From positions 14,042 to 78,041 of the forward strand of contig CAYVYW010000007.1 of the NCBI GenBank assembly GCA_964456065.1: 64,000 nt of DNA. The letters run 5' to 3'. Position 1 is the first letter of the stretch; each line of letters begins with the position of its first letter. The translations under genes and the position numbers were made by a program. Of the stretch, positions 23,783-60,094 are shown piece by piece. The notes below the pieces were generated by a model. That model did not search any database and was not told where the DNA came from. It worked only from the letters and a program-made list of their open reading frames with translations. Origin of the DNA: an uncultured Geobacteraceae bacterium (GTDB taxonomy: Bacteria; Desulfobacterota; Desulfuromonadia; Geobacterales; Pseudopelobacteraceae).

Positions 23783-25075
23783 TTATTTACGAGCCATGGC
23801 GCTATCCATAACTTTATAGGCACAGAATTCGCCGCACATCGTGCAGGCACCATGCTCAGCTACTGGTGAGTTGGCACGATACTCACGAGCTTTGTCCGGA
23901 TCGAGTGCCATGGCGAACTGGCCTTCCCAATCGAGTTTTTTCCGGGCAAGAGCCATGGCATTGTCCTTCTCGATGGCGCCCGGAACACCCTTGGCAATGT
24001 CGGCGGCATGGGCAGCGATGCGCGAAGCGATAACGCCGTCTCGGACATCATTGATTTCCGGCAGGGCGAGATGTTCCGCTGGGGTGACGTAGCAAAGGAA
24101 GTCAGCACCAGCAGCGCCGGCAATAGCTCCACCGATAGCACAGGTGATGTGATCATAGCCTGGTGCAATGTCGGTAACCAGAGGCCCGAGGACATAGAAC
24201 GGAGCACCGTGGCAGAGACGTTTTTGCAGCTGAATATTTGTCTGAATCTGTTGTAAGGGGACATGGCCCGGGCCTTCAATCATGACCTGTACACCTGCGT
24301 CCCATGCCCGTTGGGTCAATTCTCCCAAAATAATCAGCTCCTGGATTTGGGCCCGGTCGGTGGCGTCAGCCAAGCAGCCAGGGCGGAAACCGTCGCCAAG
24401 GGACAGCGTTGCGTCATAGCGCTTGGTTATTTCCAGAAGACGATCAAAGTGCTCATAGAGAGGGTTCTCTTTGTTGTTGTAACTCATCCATTCGATGGTA
24501 AAGGCACCACCCCGTGAAACAACATCCATAATCCGGCCTTCACGGCGCATGCGCTCGACGGTCGCCTGTGTTACACCGCAGTGAACGGTGATGAAGTCAA
24601 CACCGTCATCGAGGTGCTTGATGATCCCTTCGAAAATATCATCTACGGTCATATCCACGAGGGCTTTTTTCTTTATACGTACGGTGTCTGTAGCGGCCTG
24701 ATAGAGGGGGACGGAGCCAATACATGCCGTTGTTTCGGCAACGATGGCACGTCTAATCTCATCAACCGGTCCACCTGTTGAAAGGTCCATTATGGCATCT
24801 GCACCGTATTTCACGGCGACGCGTGCTTTTTCCAGTTCCTTGGTGATATCAGTGTCATCTGCTGAAGTACCAATGTTGGCATTTACTTTTGTACGCAGGC
24901 CGGCTCCGACAGCTAAGGGAATACCGTGGGGATGGGTCTTGTCATTATGACAAATAATCATGGTCCCCTTGGCTATTCCGGCCCGAAGGAATTCTGGTTC
25001 AACGCCTTCCGCCTGTGCCGCGACTCTCATTTTGTCCGTTATAATGCCCTTACGTGCTGCTTCAAGCTGGGTCAT
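23783..25075 (-). CDS. thiC: Phosphomethylpyrimidine synthase
   Basis: MTQLEAARKGIITDKM..., ...GTVPIYQ-like SVPLYQA... and a C-terminal CTMCGEFC Fe-S motif. Start at 25075. It overlaps the thiED 3' end by 14 nt. Confidence 0.93.
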   Translation of the reverse strand: MTQLEAARKGIITDKMRVAAQAEGVEPEFLRAGIAKGTMIICHNDKTHPHGIPLAVGAGLRTKVNANIGTSADDTDITKELEKARVAVKYGADAIMDLSTGGPVDEIRRAIVAETTACIGSVPLYQAATDTVRIKKKALVDMTVDDIFEGIIKHLDDGVDFITVHCGVTQATVERMRREGRIMDVVSRGGAFTIEWMSYNNKENPLYEHFDRLLEITKRYDATLSLGDGFRPGCLADATDRAQIQELIILGELTQRAWDAGVQVMIEGPGHVPLQQIQTNIQLQKRLCHGAPFYVLGPLVTDIAPGYDHITCAIGGAIAGAAGADFLCYVTPAEHLALPEINDVRDGVIASRIAAHAADIAKGVPGAIEKDNAMALARKKLDWEGQFAMALDPDKAREYRANSPVAEHGACTMCGEFCAYKVMDSAMARK

Positions 25076-26543
25076 GCTGTAACTCCTTTGCTGCAAGGTA
25101 ATGGTTGATGGGACTATGCCCTTTTCCAATGGGACGTGCTGACCTAATCGCCCGGATAATAAATTCTTTTGCCTGTGTTACCGCCGTTACCAGGGGTTCT
25201 CCTTGTGCCAGAAAGGCCGCTATGGCTGATGCATAACTACAGCCGGTTCCGTGCGTTGCTGTGGTGGCAATTCTCTCGCCTGAAAAATGATGTATGTTTT
25301 TACCGTCAAACAAAACATCCACGGCACGCGCTCCGTTGAGATGTCCCCCTTTAATTAATACGTTTGCTGCTCCCATCGCGACAAGGTCACGAGCTGCCTC
25401 TTCCATCTGGCTGATGGTGGTTATGGGGCGGCCCAGCAATTCCTCTGCCTCAGGTAGGTTTGGCGTTAAAAGGTAGGTTAGGGGGAGTAATTCGGCGCAG
25501 AAGACCGAAACTGCTTCCCGTGCTAGGAGCGATGCACCACCCTTTGCAACCATTACCGGGTCGATGACCGTTGGAATATAGTGTGGTAGATCACGAAGAT
25601 ATTCAGCTAACATGGCTGTGACGGCAGGGGTGTGGAGCATCCCTGTTTTAATCACGTCTACGGGCAGGTCACTAACGACAGCCTCAATCTGATCTCGGAT
25701 ACAGGAAGGGGGGATGGCGTGTACGCCATGGACGCCGATGGTGTTCTGGATGGTTAAGGCGGTAATAGCGCTTGAGGCATAGCTGCCGAGGAGTGTTATG
25801 ACTTTGATGTCAGCCTGAACGCCAGCTCCGCCACCACTATCACTTCCAGCGACACTTAAAACGCCACCGCGCGGCAAAGGCAGTTTACGGTTGCCGATCA
25901 GGCGTAGTTCTGCTGCTGCAACCATTGGGTTCTTGGCAGATAAGACTGCAGAGATGACGGCAATGCCGTCTGCGCCGGCATCAATGACCCTGCAGGCATT
26001 GCTTGGAGTTATGCCACCGATGGCAATAATAGGAATGTGGATGGCTTGACGAATAGCACCTAGTCCTGCCACCCCTGGCATATGGATAACGTCCTTGGAT
26101 CCCGTTGGGAACATGGCACCAAAGCCAATGTAGCTGGCACCATCCGCCTGAGCCCGTTCGGCTTCAGCAAGATTATGGGTTGATACACCAATCAGTGCCT
26201 GCTCTCCCATGCGTTGGCGAGCTTCGGCTACGGTACCATCATCCTGTCCTAAATGGACACCATCTGCGTGCAGTGAAAGTGCTATATCTATGGAATCATT
26301 TACAATAAACGGTACGCCGTAGCGTTGGCACTGTGAGCGAATGGCCTCTGCTTCACACCGGTCAGCTTCTGAGAGTACTCCCTTGTGACGATACTGAACA
26401 GCACAGACACCACCGCGTAATGCTGCTTCGATCCGCTCGGTGAGGCCCTCGCCCTGGTCAGTAATTAAATAGACGCCGTTCAGAGAAAAACTCTGGTCAT
26501 GCCTTGTCGCTACAATATGCAGAGGATGGGCATCGTGTGCCAT
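25062..26543 (-). CDS. Fused thiamine-phosphate synthase / hydroxymethylpyrimidine (phosphate) kinase (ThiE-ThiD)
   Basis: The N-terminal half resembles ThiE (LYLITD..., VQYRHK, GVSTH, IIAIGGI). The C-terminal half resembles ThiD (LSVAGSDSGGGAGVQADIK..., HGTGCSYASAIAA). Confidence 0.9.
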   Translation of the reverse strand: MAHDAHPLHIVATRHDQSFSLNGVYLITDQGEGLTERIEAALRGGVCAVQYRHKGVLSEADRCEAEAIRSQCQRYGVPFIVNDSIDIALSLHADGVHLGQDDGTVAEARQRMGEQALIGVSTHNLAEAERAQADGASYIGFGAMFPTGSKDVIHMPGVAGLGAIRQAIHIPIIAIGGITPSNACRVIDAGADGIAVISAVLSAKNPMVAAAELRLIGNRKLPLPRGGVLSVAGSDSGGGAGVQADIKVITLLGSYASSAITALTIQNTIGVHGVHAIPPSCIRDQIEAVVSDLPVDVIKTGMLHTPAVTAMLAEYLRDLPHYIPTVIDPVMVAKGGASLLAREAVSVFCAELLPLTYLLTPNLPEAEELLGRPITTISQMEEAARDLVAMGAANVLIKGGHLNGARAVDVLFDGKNIHHFSGERIATTATHGTGCSYASAIAAFLAQGEPLVTAVTQAKEFIIRAIRSARPIGKGHSPINHYLAAKELQHDPA

Positions 26544-26595: not shown

Positions 26596-26632
26596 CGTGC
26601 ACCTCAGCACATCTTGAGGTATGGTGTCACAT

Positions 26633-26726
26633 ACGCCGCTTTCCTCCGCCGGCACTACCCGGTTCAGGTTCAAGGGGTTTGGCTATTGCCGTCTCAGCCT
26701 CGTCGTGCAAGGCTCCCCCAGGGCTT
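26633..26726 (-). promoter_or_regulatory. TPP (THI-box) riboswitch aptamer
   Basis: The minus strand reads CUGGGGGAGCC...GGCUGAGA...ACCCCUUGAACCUGAACCGGGUAGUGCCGGCGGAGGAAAG. This matches the conserved THI element core (CUGAGA, ACCUGA...GCC.GCG.AGGGAA). Confidence 0.88.
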
Positions 26727-26730
26727 GTTG

Positions 26731-28024: not shown

Positions 28025-29065
28025 ATGACGAACAAGAAAATCCGCCTGACCCAAATGGTCACGGCAGCCGGCTGAGCTGCTAAGCTAGGCCCGGAGGGCC
28101 TTGCCGAAGCGTTGGCTGGACTTGAACGTCCGGCCGACCCATACCTGCTCGTGGGACCTGAAACGTCCGATGATGGGGGTGTCTATTTCCTGCGTCCGGA
28201 TTGCGCCTTAGTGGAAAGCTGTGATGTTATAACACCGCCCGCCGATGATCCGCGAGCATTTGGTAGGATTGCAGCTGCGAATGCACTCTCTGATGTGTAT
28301 GCAATGGGTGGTCTGCCTCTCACGGCAATGAATATTGTCTTTTTTCCCCTCTGTTCTCTTGAGCCATGGGTACTCAGCGAGGTTTTAATGGGGGGGCAGG
28401 AGGCCTTGAATGAAGCTGGCTGCTGTCTGGTTGGCGGTCACACCGTTGAGGATGCAGAGATAAAATACGGTATGGCCATAACCGGCACCGTACATCCTGA
28501 TCATATTATTAAGAATGCGACGGCCCGGGTTGGTGATCGCCTTGTATTGACCAAGCCTTTGGGCAGCGGGATTTTAAATACTGCGGTAAAGGGTGGCTTG
28601 GCTACACCCGACCAAGAGCAGGAAGTCGTTGCCTGGATGGGGACCTTAAACCGGTTAGCTGCGGAGATTATGCGTCAGTGTGAGCCTTCGGCCTGTACGG
28701 ATGTAACCGGCTTTGGTTTAGTGGGGCATGCCAGTGAGATGGCCAACGGTGCCGGGGTTACGGTACATTTGCAACTTGATGCCATACCGCTTATGGGCGG
28801 TGTTATGGAACAGATTGCAGATGGTATGGTTCCTGCCGGCTGCTATCAAAACCGTAGCTTCTATCTCGGCAGTGTCAAGGCGGATGCACTGCCGGAAGAT
28901 CGTCTGCTGCCGCTTTTCGATCCACAAACTTCAGGGGGGCTTCTCATCGCACTATCGCCGCTTCAGGCAGAGCGTTTCGCTGAAATGGCGGCCCAGCAAG
29001 GTGTTTTCTGTCACGTTATCGGGGAGATTCTTCCCCGTGGTGATCATGCGGTACTTCTCACGTAA
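28025..29065 (+). CDS. selD: Selenide, water dikinase (selenophosphate synthetase) with in-frame UGA = selenocysteine
   Basis: ATG 28025 gives [16 protein letters not shown], then TGA (28073-28075), then [37 protein letters not shown]... The track ORF 28112-29065 is in the same frame (28112-28025=87). The UGA sits where SelD proteins carry the catalytic Cys/Sec (G-C/U-x-x-K). AIR-synthase-like domains follow. Confidence 0.85.
28084..28104 (+). promoter_or_regulatory. SECIS-like hairpin of selD
   Basis: AGGCCC-GGA-GGGCCU (28087-28101), extendable by GC/GC (28084-28104), begins 11 nt after the UGA. The apical loop is G-rich. Confidence 0.6.
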
Positions 29066-57139: not shown

Positions 57140-58519
57140 CTAAAAGGCAGCATGCCGAGGGGTGCGGGGGAACGGCAATACATCTCGAATGTTTTCCATG
57201 CCGGTCAGATACATTAAAAAGCGTTCAAAGCCGAGACCAAAGCCTGCATGGGGTGTGCTACCCCAGCGGCGTGAGTCGCGATACCACCAGAGTGAGGCCG
57301 GATCGATACCGCTGGCCTGCATCTTGGTATCAAGTCGATCAAGGCGTTCTTCCCGCTGACTACCTCCAATCAGCTCACCAACACCGGGGACCAGAAGGTC
57401 CATGGCGGCAACGGTGCGGCCATCATCGTTGTCACGCATATAGAAAGCCTTGATGGCACGGGGATAGTCCAGTATGAAAACAGGGCCACCAACCACCTGC
57501 TCGCAGAGATAGCGCTCATGTTCCGTCTGTAAGTCGGCTCCCCAGGATACGGGATAGCTAAATCCGCTTGGTGCTGCTTCAAGATGGCGTATTGCTTCGG
57601 TATAGCTCATGCGCTCGAAGCTATGCTCAGCAACGGAGCGAATACGCTCCAAAAGGCCTGGCGCAATCATACGGTCAAAAAAAGCCAAATCCTCAGGTAA
57701 GTCCTCCAGTGCACGGCGCAACAACGCTTTAACGAAGGTTTCAGCAAGATCGGCATTGTCTGCCAGGTCAGCGAAGGCCATTTCCGGCTCAATCATCCAG
57801 AACTCGGCGGCATGTCGTGGGGTATTGGAGTTTTCTGCTCGAAATGTTGGACCAAAAGTATAAATTGCACTGAAGGCCTGGGCAAAGAGCTCACCTTCAA
57901 GCTGTCCGCTGACCGTGAGGGCTGTTTTTGTCCCAAAAAAATCATCCTGAGGTGAAGCATGGCTCCCTGGCTCATGGGTGGTGACGTTGAACAGCTCACC
58001 GGCTCCCTCGCAGTCACTGGCTGTAATTATCGGGGTGGTCACGTAAAGAAAGCCCTGCTCGGCGAAGAAGCGATGGACAGCCTGTGCCATTGTGGAACGA
58101 GTGCGAAAGACCGCGCCAAAGGTGTTGGTGCGCGGGCGTAAATGAGCAATTTCTCTTAGATACTCGAATGAATGTCGCTTCTTCTGTAGGGGGTACTCTG
58201 GGTCACTATCACCAACTATCGTGATTGTGTGTACCTGTATTTCAAGCGGTTGGGGGTGGCCAGGAGTCAGGTGGACCGCGCCGGAGGCAATGATGGCGGC
58301 ACCGGTACCGATGCGGGTGGCGCTAGTGTAGTCCTCAAGGAGCGTGGCATCCAGCACGAGTTGAAGTCCGGCAAGTTCGGATCCGTCATTAAGAGTTATG
58401 AAGGCAATATGTTTTCCGGCTCGATTGGCGCGTACCCACCCCTGAACCGTTACCATGCTTCCTTCAGGTGGTGGGTTGTGCAGGAGCTCCTTCAAGCGGA
58501 GGTCACAGCGCAGACTCAT
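57140..58519 (-). CDS. asnS: Asparagine--tRNA ligase
   Basis: N-terminal OB-fold (VTVQGWVRANR...IAFITLNDGS), class II motifs, and the AsnRS-typical ITASDCEGAGELF. ATGA overlap with the rluB stop. Confidence 0.88.
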   Translation of the reverse strand: MSLRCDLRLKELLHNPPPEGSMVTVQGWVRANRAGKHIAFITLNDGSELAGLQLVLDATLLEDYTSATRIGTGAAIIASGAVHLTPGHPQPLEIQVHTITIVGDSDPEYPLQKKRHSFEYLREIAHLRPRTNTFGAVFRTRSTMAQAVHRFFAEQGFLYVTTPIITASDCEGAGELFNVTTHEPGSHASPQDDFFGTKTALTVSGQLEGELFAQAFSAIYTFGPTFRAENSNTPRHAAEFWMIEPEMAFADLADNADLAETFVKALLRRALEDLPEDLAFFDRMIAPGLLERIRSVAEHSFERMSYTEAIRHLEAAPSGFSYPVSWGADLQTEHERYLCEQVVGGPVFILDYPRAIKAFYMRDNDDGRTVAAMDLLVPGVGELIGGSQREERLDRLDTKMQASGIDPASLWWYRDSRRWGSTPHAGFGLGFERFLMYLTGMENIRDVLPFPRTPRHAAF

Positions 58520-59499
58520 CGCTTCGTATCCCGTGGCGTTGTAACCATAATTCTACGGGGAGGTCGCTTTGTTCCCGGAGTATTCTCCTGGTTCACCACT
58601 GGAGCGCGCTCCCGCTTCGCTGCCGGTGCATTCTCCCTTTTTCCCACCGGAGTACGCTCACGTTTTACTGGCGGCGCATTCTCTCTTTTTCCCGCCGGAG
58701 CACGCTCACGTTTCGTTGAGGGTGTACGCTCAGCTCTAACGGTCGGGGCCTTTTCCCGTTCTACTCCCTTAGGTCTCTCTTTCGGGGCCGGCTGTACGAG
58801 GGCAGTTGCTTCCTGTTTGCTCAGTAAGCGGTATTGACCTGGTTCAAGGCCACCAAGGGTCAGCGTGCCGTAACGAATACGGCGCAGACGGACAACGGAA
58901 AGGCCAACTGCCGCACACATACGACGCACCTGACGATTTCGCCCTTCCCGTATGGTTATGGAGAGCCAGTCATTTAACTGGTCCTGCTTGAGAATCCTTG
59001 CTGCGGCTGCTTTGCATGGTCCGTCTTCCAGTTCAACACCGGACAAGAGACGTTGGACCTGTTGTGGATCAACCTTGCCGCGTACGCGGACATGGTATTC
59101 TTTATCGACCTCATGGCGGGGATGCATAAGACGGTTTGCCCAGTCGCCATCGTTCGTCATTAATAGCAACCCTTCAGAGTTATAGTCCAGACGGCCGACC
59201 GGGTAGAGACGTACTCCGACCTCTTGTACTAAATCACTAACCAGTGCACGTCCGTTTGGATCTTTGAGGGTGGTTACATAGCCAGCTGGTTTGTGCAGTA
59301 CCAGATAGACCTGCCGTTCCACGGGACGTACCGGTGCGCCATCCAGGGTGATGGTGTCGTGATGGGGATCGGCTTTGGTGCCTAGTTCCGTGACGGTAGT
59401 ACCGTTTACCTGAACTCTTCCTGCAAGGATATACTCCTCTGCTGTTCTACGGGAACAGATTCCGGCCGAGGCTAGTATTTTTTGAAGACGCTCCGTCAT
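58516..59499 (-). CDS. rluB: 23S rRNA pseudouridine synthase RluB family (S4 domain + catalytic domain + repetitive basic tail)
   Basis: MTERLQKILASAGICSRRTAEEYI (S4), PVGRLDYNSEGLLLMTNDG (catalytic Asp) and a Lys/Arg/Glu/Pro repeat tail. Confidence 0.88.
   Translation of the reverse strand: MTERLQKILASAGICSRRTAEEYILAGRVQVNGTTVTELGTKADPHHDTITLDGAPVRPVERQVYLVLHKPAGYVTTLKDPNGRALVSDLVQEVGVRLYPVGRLDYNSEGLLLMTNDGDWANRLMHPRHEVDKEYHVRVRGKVDPQQVQRLLSGVELEDGPCKAAAARILKQDQLNDWLSITIREGRNRQVRRMCAAVGLSVVRLRRIRYGTLTLGGLEPGQYRLLSKQEATALVQPAPKERPKGVEREKAPTVRAERTPSTKRERAPAGKRENAPPVKRERTPVGKRENAPAAKRERAPVVNQENTPGTKRPPRRIMVTTPRDTKR
58570..58761 (-). repeat. Eight tandem 24-nt (8-aa) coding repeats in the rluB 3' region
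   Basis: EREKAPTV / RAERTPST / KRERAPAG / KRENAPPV / KRERTPVG / KRENAPAA / KRERAPVV / NQENTPGT. The periodicity is visible at the DNA level, and in the antisense ORF 58229-58837. Confidence 0.85.
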
Positions 59500-59726
59500 G
59501 ACTCTTCTTTCTGGGTGGTGGAGGAATCCTTACCATCCTTGGGGGACTGCTCACCTGGAACAAGCGCAAGGGCAAGTCCAATCAGTGCACCGTAGAGGGC
59601 CCCTGACCAGGGGCTGGACATCATGGCTCAGCCACCGCCGGTGCAGCGACTGACAAAACTGTAGAGTAGGCCTATCACCCCACCGCCACCAACAAAGAGC
59701 AGATATTTTACAGCTTTCAATTTCAT
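59496..59726 (-). CDS. Candidate 76-aa two-TM membrane protein with an in-frame UGA (possible selenocysteine); alternatively two separate 32-aa and 42-aa ORFs
   Basis: ATG 59726 (ATGA overlap with the ybaN stop) gives MKLKAVKYLLFVGGGGVIGLLYSFVSRCTGGG, then TGA (59630-59628). The same frame continues AMMSSPWSGALYGALIGLALALVPGEQSPKDGKDSSTTQKEES, then a stop at 59498-59496 that overlaps the rluB ATG. Both parts fall below the ORF-track length cutoff. Confidence 0.4.
59599..59614 (-). promoter_or_regulatory. SECIS-like hairpin downstream of the in-frame UGA
   Basis: The mRNA can form GCCCC-UGGUCA-GGGGC: a 5-bp G:C stem with a 6-nt loop containing GGU, starting 13 nt after the UGA. Confidence 0.3.
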
Positions 59727-60094
59727 CAGTTCTCCTTCCTGGTTGGAAGCCTCATTAGGTAGATCACCAGCAAGGCAGCAAGCAAAAACAGGGCGACCTG
59801 GACTGGACGTGAGGGAACCAGGAGTACCGTTGAGGGGGGTAGGGTTAGTAAGACCATGGAAACAGCAGTAACTTTAGCCCGGCGTGGTATGCCGCTACCA
59901 TCGAGGTACCCTTGGATTATCGGCCCGAAGAAGCGATGGCCGAGTAACCAGTGGTGGAATCGTTCGGAACTACGGGCAAAACAGGCCGCCGCCAGAAGTA
60001 CGAAAGGGGTTGTGGGGAGTAGGGGTACCACCACACCAACAATACCTAAGGCGAGTGAAAGCCAACCGGCTGCAATCAGAAGGAGGCGTAGCAT
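59726..60094 (-). CDS. ybaN: YbaN-family (DUF454) inner membrane protein
   Basis: LALGIVGVVVPLLPTTPFVLLAAACFARSSERFHHWLLGHRFFGP is the DUF454 signature. 122 aa. Confidence 0.85.
   Translation of the reverse strand: MLRLLLIAAGWLSLALGIVGVVVPLLPTTPFVLLAAACFARSSERFHHWLLGHRFFGPIIQGYLDGSGIPRRAKVTAVSMVLLTLPPSTVLLVPSRPVQVALFLLAALLVIYLMRLPTRKEN

Follow-up and report, generated by a model that had tools for sequence, protein, structure and literature searches.

The window analysed here is a stretch of 64,000 nucleotides (nt) of contig CAYVYW010000007.1 from an uncultured Geobacteraceae bacterium, and its minus strand carries, at positions 59726-59496 between ybaN and rluB, a small reading frame interrupted by one UGA. 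This frame is very probably a single gene for a selenoprotein of the DUF6132 family, decoded by the ordinary SelB/SECIS (selenocysteine insertion sequence) mechanism. The frame is conserved as one across related loci, its UGA aligns with a cysteine of the family, the hairpin that follows the UGA is constrained at the nucleotide level, and the genome encodes a SelD that itself contains selenocysteine (Sec). An earlier reading made from the letters of the window only (the sequence-only reading) had interpreted the stretch as a possible selenoprotein gene, and the comparisons described below support this interpretation.

In the proposed scheme, the small gene would encode one protein of about 8 kDa with two transmembrane helices (TM1 and TM2) joined by a short loop. 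The second loop cysteine of DUF6132 would be Sec here and in a clade of Geobacteraceae, encoded by the UGA at 59630-59628, and a hairpin at 59614-59599 would bring SelB and its Sec-tRNA(Sec) to ribosomes that pause at this codon. The gene forms part of a translationally coupled string, ybaN-X-rluB (X being the small gene), joined through TGATG and ATGA overlaps.

An interrupted frame of the DUF6132 family

Translation of 59726-59496 on the minus strand gives MKLKAVKYLLFVGGGGVIGLLYSFVSRCTGGG*AMMSSPWSGALYGALIGLALALVPGEQSPKDGKDSSTTQKEES*, that is, 231 nt comprising 76 codons and a stop. In agreement with the sequence-only reading, this is one frame whose sole internal stop is the TGA at 59630-59628, placed five codons after the only Cys codon (TGC, 59645-59643) in a C-x4-UGA motif; the first ATG after the UGA lies at 59624-59622. 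The terminal TGA (59498-59496) overlaps the rluB ATG (59499-59497) as ATGA, again as had been described. At the other end, the start ATG (59726-59724) shares one base with the ybaN stop (59728-59726), forming TGATG and not the ATGA that had been reported there. A good Shine-Dalgarno sequence, AAGGAG, is read directly at 59737-59732, 5 nt upstream of this ATG. The list of open reading frames (ORFs) gives the two halves of the gene as separate ORFs of 32 and 42 amino acids (aa). When the UGA is read as Sec, the 76-aa product consists of an N-tail (MKLKAVKY), TM1, a loop (SRC-TGGG-U-AMMSSPW) in which Cys28 would be the partner of Sec at residue 33, TM2 and an acidic C-tail. The assignment of this product to DUF6132 draws on the translation, Pfam, hhalign and the orthologues.

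A profile search with the U replaced by Cys, as the sequence-only reading had suggested, matched the product to Pfam PF19628 (DUF6132) with an E-value of 2.5e-8 and 33.9 bits, the gathering score being 23.2 bits. The match runs across the UGA, from residues 6-56 of the product to positions 6-56 of the 60 in the profile. With X or W at the UGA the score was 28.6 or 27.3 bits, respectively, and the gain of 5.3 bits from X to Cys indicates that Cys is the residue for which the profile is built here. Taken alone, both halves fell below the gathering score, with 20.7 bits for the second and no match for the first. In a Pfam scan extended to E 10, the only match besides PF19628 was one of the W variant to a holin family (E 0.89), and there was no match to MerT (PF02411), MerF, MerE or the YgaP-like TM family (PF11127). 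The two-helix, Cys-x4-Cys DUF family that the sequence-only reading had mentioned is thus a real one, PF19628.

A word-indexed homologue search with the single sequence retrieved only a 41-aa second-half ORF. A query made from the aligned sequences of the Sec clade, in which X stood for the UGA, reached full-length Cys homologues, namely P0003 (..GRCAGGTCPIACTPWGG.. / ..GRCAGGTCPIACTPWGGILVGALIG..), P0004 and P0005, all of them with C-x4-C. The P0003 cluster includes MDP8217524.1, a 'DUF6132 family protein' of Candidatus Theseobacter exili (phylum Auribacterota). When 1.84 billion representatives were searched with a profile built from P0003-P0005, 1507 proteins matched at E ≤0.001 and 511 at ≤1e-10, the former number counting representative clusters at 50% identity and being a lower bound for DUF6132. 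Two loop cysteines were present in all 153 Cys-form sequences examined (C-x4-C in 147, C-x3-C in five and C-x5-C in one), within the motif G-C-x-S-G-T-C-P-I-T-S-N-P-[YW]-x-S-T-L-Y-G-A, and they are the sole invariant columns of an alignment of 75 Cys forms. When this alignment was compared with the Sec clade by hhalign (98.6% probability, E 6e-16), the column of the UGA fell on the second of the two invariant Cys, in line with what the sequence-only reading had anticipated, and Cys28, invariant in all Sec-form orthologues, aligns with the first. The loop feature of PF19628, two Cys spaced 3-5 residues apart and followed by x-[ILM]-x-S-x-P, is present in the product only if the UGA stands for Sec or Cys, the residues A-M-M-S-S-P directly after the UGA matching its second part. 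DUF6132 proteins are typically stand-alone, with about 60-80 aa and two hydrophobic helices, a size range that includes the 76-aa product. Domain fusions were considered for the longer database members and rejected, as these look like proteins with mis-called starts.

Related loci were collected from one genome per GTDB species and from metagenomes. The first scan yielded nine, from Trichlorobacter sp., T. lovleyi, T. thiogenes ATCC BAA-34, several Geobacter metagenome-assembled genomes (MAGs) and one contig binned as Cloacimonadota, and the second added 14, giving 23 loci and, with the window, 24 (20 distinct DNA sequences). The aligned site is TGA in 24/24 loci, never TAA or TAG, and both halves remain in one frame. 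The sequence-only reading had asked whether the frame across the TGA is conserved, and it is kept in each of the 23 related loci, with purifying selection on both halves. Pairwise ratios of nonsynonymous to synonymous divergence (dN/dS) are 0.04-0.5 in each half, at dS values from about 0.4 to saturation, which indicates that the lineages are well separated and that both halves are translated. As a control, stops of neighbouring genes turn over in these same loci, with TAG in six and TGA in five for AsnS, and TAG in 13 and TAA in six for AccA. The ybaN stop is TGA in all 18 loci that have ybaN, and the terminal stop of the small gene is likewise always TGA, because the TGATG and ATGA overlaps force this codon. 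The conservation pattern of the internal TGA is beyond chance.

The gene order accA-(ybaN)-X-rluB-asnS is kept in the related loci, and the small gene adjoins rluB in every one that extends far enough. In five loci (L013, L015, L016, L023 and L027), that of T. thiogenes among them, no ybaN gene (DUF454) stands between accA and the small gene, and the conserved partner of the small gene is therefore rluB and not ybaN. The Sec forms fall into two groups that differ by one in-frame codon (a 3-nt indel), both within the x3-x5 range of the Cys forms. The Trichlorobacter-like group (L011-L016, L019-L028) has C-x5-U, as C-A-G-G-G-[TAS]-U, and the group of the window (with L017, L018 and L029-L033) has C-x4-U, as C-[TA]-G-[GS]-G-U. 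Within the latter, the product encoded by L017 (JAJBBF010000146.1, labelled as a Candidatus Cloacimonadota MAG) matches that of L029 in every residue and differs at one residue from that of L018 (Geobacter sp. UBA4074), and the AccA of L017 is 84% identical to that of the window. The contig seems to be of Geobacteraceae origin and to have been binned into a Cloacimonadota MAG by mistake.

The hairpin downstream of the UGA and the selenocysteine trait

The sequence-only reading had pointed to a possible hairpin, GCCCC-UGGUCA-GGGGC, at 59614-59599, and this element was found as described. On the minus strand, a stem of GCCCCU (59614-59609) and AGGGGC (59604-59599) closes a GGUC loop (59608-59605), starting 13 nt after the TGA and placing the apical loop 19 nt after it. 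The stem has 6 base pairs (bp) in the window and 5 bp (CCCCU/AGGGG) in its relatives, and RNAalifold, applied to 15 distinct sequences, gave CCCCU/AGGGG closing the GGUC loop as the consensus. In the same 15 sequences CCCCUGGUCAGGGG is invariant, including the third positions of CCC, TCA and GGG. Over the 20 distinct sequences, the codons for Pro (+6, CCC), Ser (+8, TCA) and Gly (+9, GGG) show no synonymous variation at all (20/20). Nearby invariant residues use two to four codons each (A+10, L+11, A+14 and P+24 four, G+13 and G+17 three, Y+12 two). The frozen synonymous sites indicate that the constraint on CCCCUGGUCAGGGG acts at the nucleotide level.

The published bSECIS consensus model of Zhang and Gladyshev allows an apical loop of 3-9 nt with a G in its first two positions, an upper stem of 4-16 bp, a distance of 16-37 nt from UGA to loop and a minimum free energy (MFE) of -7.5 kcal/mol or lower (PMC13188914). 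The window's hairpin lies inside all of these limits, with a loop of 4 nt, a stem of 6 bp, a distance of 19 nt and -10.1 kcal/mol for the hairpin alone. The Trichlorobacter hairpin alone reaches -6.7 kcal/mol, and -11 to -21 kcal/mol with a lower stem, the range that the relatives show in a 48-nt context. Five distinct Cys-form genes, which have TGT or TGC at the site, contain no comparable hairpin.

A possible extended SECIS (59586-59630, minus strand) is a weaker candidate, in which a lower stem starting at the UGA would pair the AUG-AUG region with the Leu-Tyr-Gly codons. Its single-sequence folds range from -11 to -21 kcal/mol, and the lower helix is 85% paired over the 15 sequences, four of which, related to one another, share a single double change from A-U to G-C; the structure was derived from one of the sequences compared, and shuffle and slide controls were mildly favourable. 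RNAalifold did not predict the lower stem from the 15 sequences, and the window's own lower stem is poor, so that support for this extended element, its covariation included, is weak. Searches against Rfam gave no match at the UGA site beyond chance-level ones.

The organism's capacity to decode UGA as Sec is suggested by selD, the selenophosphate synthetase gene, found by tblastn at 28025-29065 on the plus strand. With an E. coli SelD query, the match had an E-value of 5e-72 and 42% identity, and an in-frame TGA at 28073-28075 aligned with E. coli Cys17 (translation ..VTAAG*AAKLG..), bearing out the statement of the sequence-only reading that the window encodes a Sec-containing SelD. A stable hairpin, AGGCCC-GGA-GGGCCT, at 28087-28101 starts 11 nt after this UGA, with its loop 17 nt away, and the surrounding 76-nt fold has a z of -3.8. 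The ORF list gives selD only as the 317-aa piece after the TGA (28112-29065), and regular-expression searches of the window for the SelD motifs *xCK and DDAAV gave no match because this SelD reads G-U-A-A-K. A SelD of this kind implies, as judged from its sequence, that UGA-to-Sec decoding works in the organism. G. sulfurreducens has 13 selenoprotein genes (PMC12013277).

Competing readings of the UGA

Several points weigh against the selenoprotein reading. Its support for actual Sec insertion is an inference from sequence, and SelB binding is likewise predicted. Every Sec form found belongs to one clade, Geobacteraceae, and the 24 loci thus represent few independent lineages. None of selA, selB and selC (tRNA-Sec) was seen in the 64-kb window. 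The sequence-only reading had proposed a check for compensatory changes in the hairpin; what was found is an invariant element with suppressed synonymous change, but the very invariance of the apical stem means that it holds no compensatory pairs, and the covariation of the lower stem amounts to a single pair, confined to one lineage. Shuffled sequences fold as stably as the 81 nt around the site (z = +1.04), whose MFE structure does not use the hairpin, and folding energy by itself is not counted as evidence. Strict conservation is also seen for the AUG at the second codon past the UGA, as a stop followed by a restart would need, and the Gly codons just upstream of it form Shine-Dalgarno-like GGNGG strings. 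In addition, the neighbourhoods of Cys-form genes show no recurrent functional partner and give no consistent functional clue.

The conserved AUG (59624-59622) occurs at codon +2 in 20/20 distinct Sec-form sequences, and the DUF6132 Cys forms have Ile at this position in 123 of 136 cases and Met in one. It may be part of the SECIS lower stem, paired with the conserved Tyr codon, or it may be a restart codon. In the latter case the UGA could act as a selenium-dependent switch, being read through when selenium is available and serving as a stop followed by a restart at the AUG when it is not. Such a switch is considered unlikely. If it existed, the same 231 nt would encode either a covalent Cys-x4-Sec hairpin protein or two single-helix peptides forming a split, Sec-less DUF6132, and the ATGA overlap would allow the switch to tune translational coupling into rluB as well.

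A permanently split gene is a minority reading and is held to be quite improbable. The UGA would then be a plain stop, and a TM1 peptide of 32-33 aa and a TM2 peptide of 41-42 aa, the latter restarted at AUG 59624 only 3 nt past the stop, would assemble non-covalently into a DUF6132-like hairpin lacking the second Cys. The invariance of an AUG at a position where Met is rare in the family fits this proposal, as do the GGNGG or GGAGG strings, which have suitable spacing for initiation, and the separate annotation of the two halves by gene callers and GenBank. Bacterial Sec insertion is also inefficient, so that a truncated product is expected in any case. However, a stop codon alone would not account for TGA in 24/24 loci where neighbouring stops turn over, nor for its exact position on the invariant Cys column, which a split protein would lose. 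Restart does not need a SECIS-fitting hairpin with frozen synonymous sites, the 'spacer' codon between the stop and the AUG stays Ala (GCC or GCA), and the AUG itself can be explained by lower-stem pairing with the conserved Tyr codon. The exclusive use of TGA at the site, the alignment with the Cys column and the SECIS-like hairpin together leave restart in its minority position.

Leaky or programmed read-through of the UGA by a standard near-cognate tRNA (Trp, Cys or Arg) would yield the full-length protein without selenium. The one conserved frame and the family match fit it equally well, and W at the site passes the PF19628 threshold. Nevertheless, it is very improbable, given that the aligned residue is an invariant Cys, that the organism has the Sec trait and that a GGUC-loop hairpin is conserved at SECIS distance; to our knowledge, efficient near-cognate UGA read-through is not an established mechanism in these bacteria. 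A decaying pseudogene, or the chance pairing of two functionless short ORFs, might be suggested by the shortness of the ORFs, their hydrophobic low-complexity sequence and the inconsistent gene calls, but these readings are rejected on account of the conserved frame, the conserved synteny and translational coupling, the significant DUF6132 match and the dN/dS values, which show purifying selection on both halves at near-saturated synonymous divergence (dS 0.4 to >1) in loci that are not near-identical strains.

Annotation, proposed function and comparison with known systems

The Sec-containing DUF6132 protein is most likely a new selenoprotein family, present in none of the catalogues or annotations checked. 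A 2026 catalogue of 119 prokaryotic selenoprotein families has no PF19628/DUF6132 entry and no C-x4-U motif (PMC13188914). A scan of the product against NCBIfam release 20 gave no significant match, only mtrG at E 0.7, and an alignment search of a collection of 5.8 billion clusters listed no full-length protein of the Sec clade. In the full-text literature, DUF6132 appeared only in an unrelated paper and Glov_2726 in none, and nothing on a Sec-containing DUF6132 was found in the literature on Geobacter and lovleyi selenoproteins. In GenBank, the first half of the T. lovleyi SZ gene is the 'hypothetical protein Glov_2726' (ACD96439.1, 33 aa), and for the window's gene, public data show the remaining half as an ORF of 41-42 aa without a name. 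If correct, the selenoprotein reading adds a family missing from the catalogue and from the NCBI models and corrects a mis-annotation that recurs in Geobacteraceae, where a 33-aa 'hypothetical protein' stands beside an orphan 41-aa ORF. With 70-76 residues and a fully membrane-embedded structure, these proteins would be among the smallest bacterial selenoproteins and among the few integral-membrane ones. Cys families regularly turn out to have Sec forms as well, and the decoding mechanism proposed here is canonical, leaving the understanding of Sec decoding unchanged.

An AlphaFold2 model of the closest Cys homologue (predicted template-modelling score 0.41) is a helix-loop-helix, with helices at residues 2-21 and 35-71 and a low-confidence loop (22-34) containing both Cys. 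Across the family, the N-tail and the C-tail have on average 3.0 and 2.67 Lys and Arg residues, respectively, compared with 0.39 for the loop. Under the positive-inside rule, this distribution suggests that both termini are cytoplasmic and that the loop is on the periplasmic side, which would place the Cys28-x4-Sec33 loop at the outer face of the inner membrane. The replacement of Cys by Sec usually marks residues that are redox-active or bind soft metals (PMC13188914). On this basis, the C-x4-U loop is proposed as a redox centre or a metal/chalcogen site; the chances that it forms a selenylsulfide redox centre are rated as about even, and a role in binding soft metals or chalcogens is put forward more tentatively. 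By the same rule, the invariant C-x4-C loop of DUF6132 is probably the active site. This would be the first pointer to what DUF6132 does, a family that is widespread, with 1507 or more clusters at 50% identity.

Some observations were made at individual Cys-form loci (L038:479-736, L042:1773-2021 and L045:4375-5254). At some of them the gene overlaps a downstream gene for a membrane protein of 82-85 aa. The overlapping product at L038 matched YgaP-like_TM (PF11127) with 24.1 bits, under the cutoff of 25.3, and is a single case. At another Cys-form locus, the gene is followed by genes for an FmdB-type Zn-ribbon protein and a thioredoxin-like protein (Thioredoxin_2/DsbH), an anecdotal association.

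The neighbours of the small gene in the window are ybaN upstream (59726-60094, minus strand), which encodes a DUF454 inner-membrane protein and is translationally coupled to it, and rluB downstream (58516-59499, minus strand), with S4 and pseudouridine synthase domains. The 3' end of rluB (58575-58714, minus strand) contains a degenerate tandem repeat with a period of 24/48 nt and about 3-4 copies, encoding a repeated C-terminal tail rich in Lys, Arg and Glu (..KRERAPAGKRENAPPVKRERTPVGKRENAPAAKRERAP..). The other strand has an ORF of 202 aa (58229-58837) that probably only shadows this repeat region. Elsewhere in the window, a thiamine pyrophosphate (TPP) riboswitch (26624-26729, minus strand; Rfam RF00059, 70.1 bits) lies upstream of a 493-aa ORF (25062-26543, minus strand), presumably a thiamine biosynthesis gene.

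The closest known relatives of the proposed selenoprotein are the Cys forms of DUF6132, such as MDP8217524.1. Both forms have a size of 65-76 aa, two hydrophobic helices, a Lys/Arg-rich N-tail and the motif G/R-C-x(3-5)-C/U-x-[IM]-x-S-x-P-[WY]-x-[SG]-x-L-Y-G-A. In the Sec form, by contrast, UGA replaces the second invariant Cys, and the loop is rich in Gly, with C-[AT]-G-[GS]-G where the Cys forms have C-x-S-G-T. Met takes the place of Ile at position +2, there is an acidic C-tail, and the gene contains a SECIS-like hairpin that is absent from the Cys-form genes.

Canonical bacterial selenoprotein genes of the E. coli fdhF type likewise contain an in-frame UGA followed by a stem-loop inside the coding region. 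The distance from UGA to loop is 18 nt in fdhF and 19 nt here, and the apical loop begins with G in both, that of fdhF being GGUC, the same four bases as in the small gene. The fdhF SECIS has a bulged U in its upper stem and a spacer of about 11 nt before the minimal stem-loop. In contrast, the 5-6 bp stem of the small gene is perfect and has no bulged U, its lower stem is weak and poorly conserved, and its binding by SelB is a prediction.

A role in handling metals or chalcogens would have a precedent in known selenoproteins that carry Sec in or beside membrane segments and handle soft metals or chalcogens, although the product of the small gene has no sequence relationship with them, is much smaller and has two helices only. 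MerF, MerE, SELENOK and SELENOS are also very small membrane proteins whose function depends on a Cys or Sec residue, or on two of them, close to the surface of the membrane. MerF and MerE are small two-helix mercury transporters with vicinal CC or CPC motifs within their helices, and the eukaryotic SELENOK and SELENOS cross the membrane once, carry Sec close to the C-terminus and have their SECIS in the 3'-UTR (untranslated region). None of the four is homologous to the Sec-containing DUF6132 protein, and the likeness lies in their small size and their reliance on Cys or Sec.

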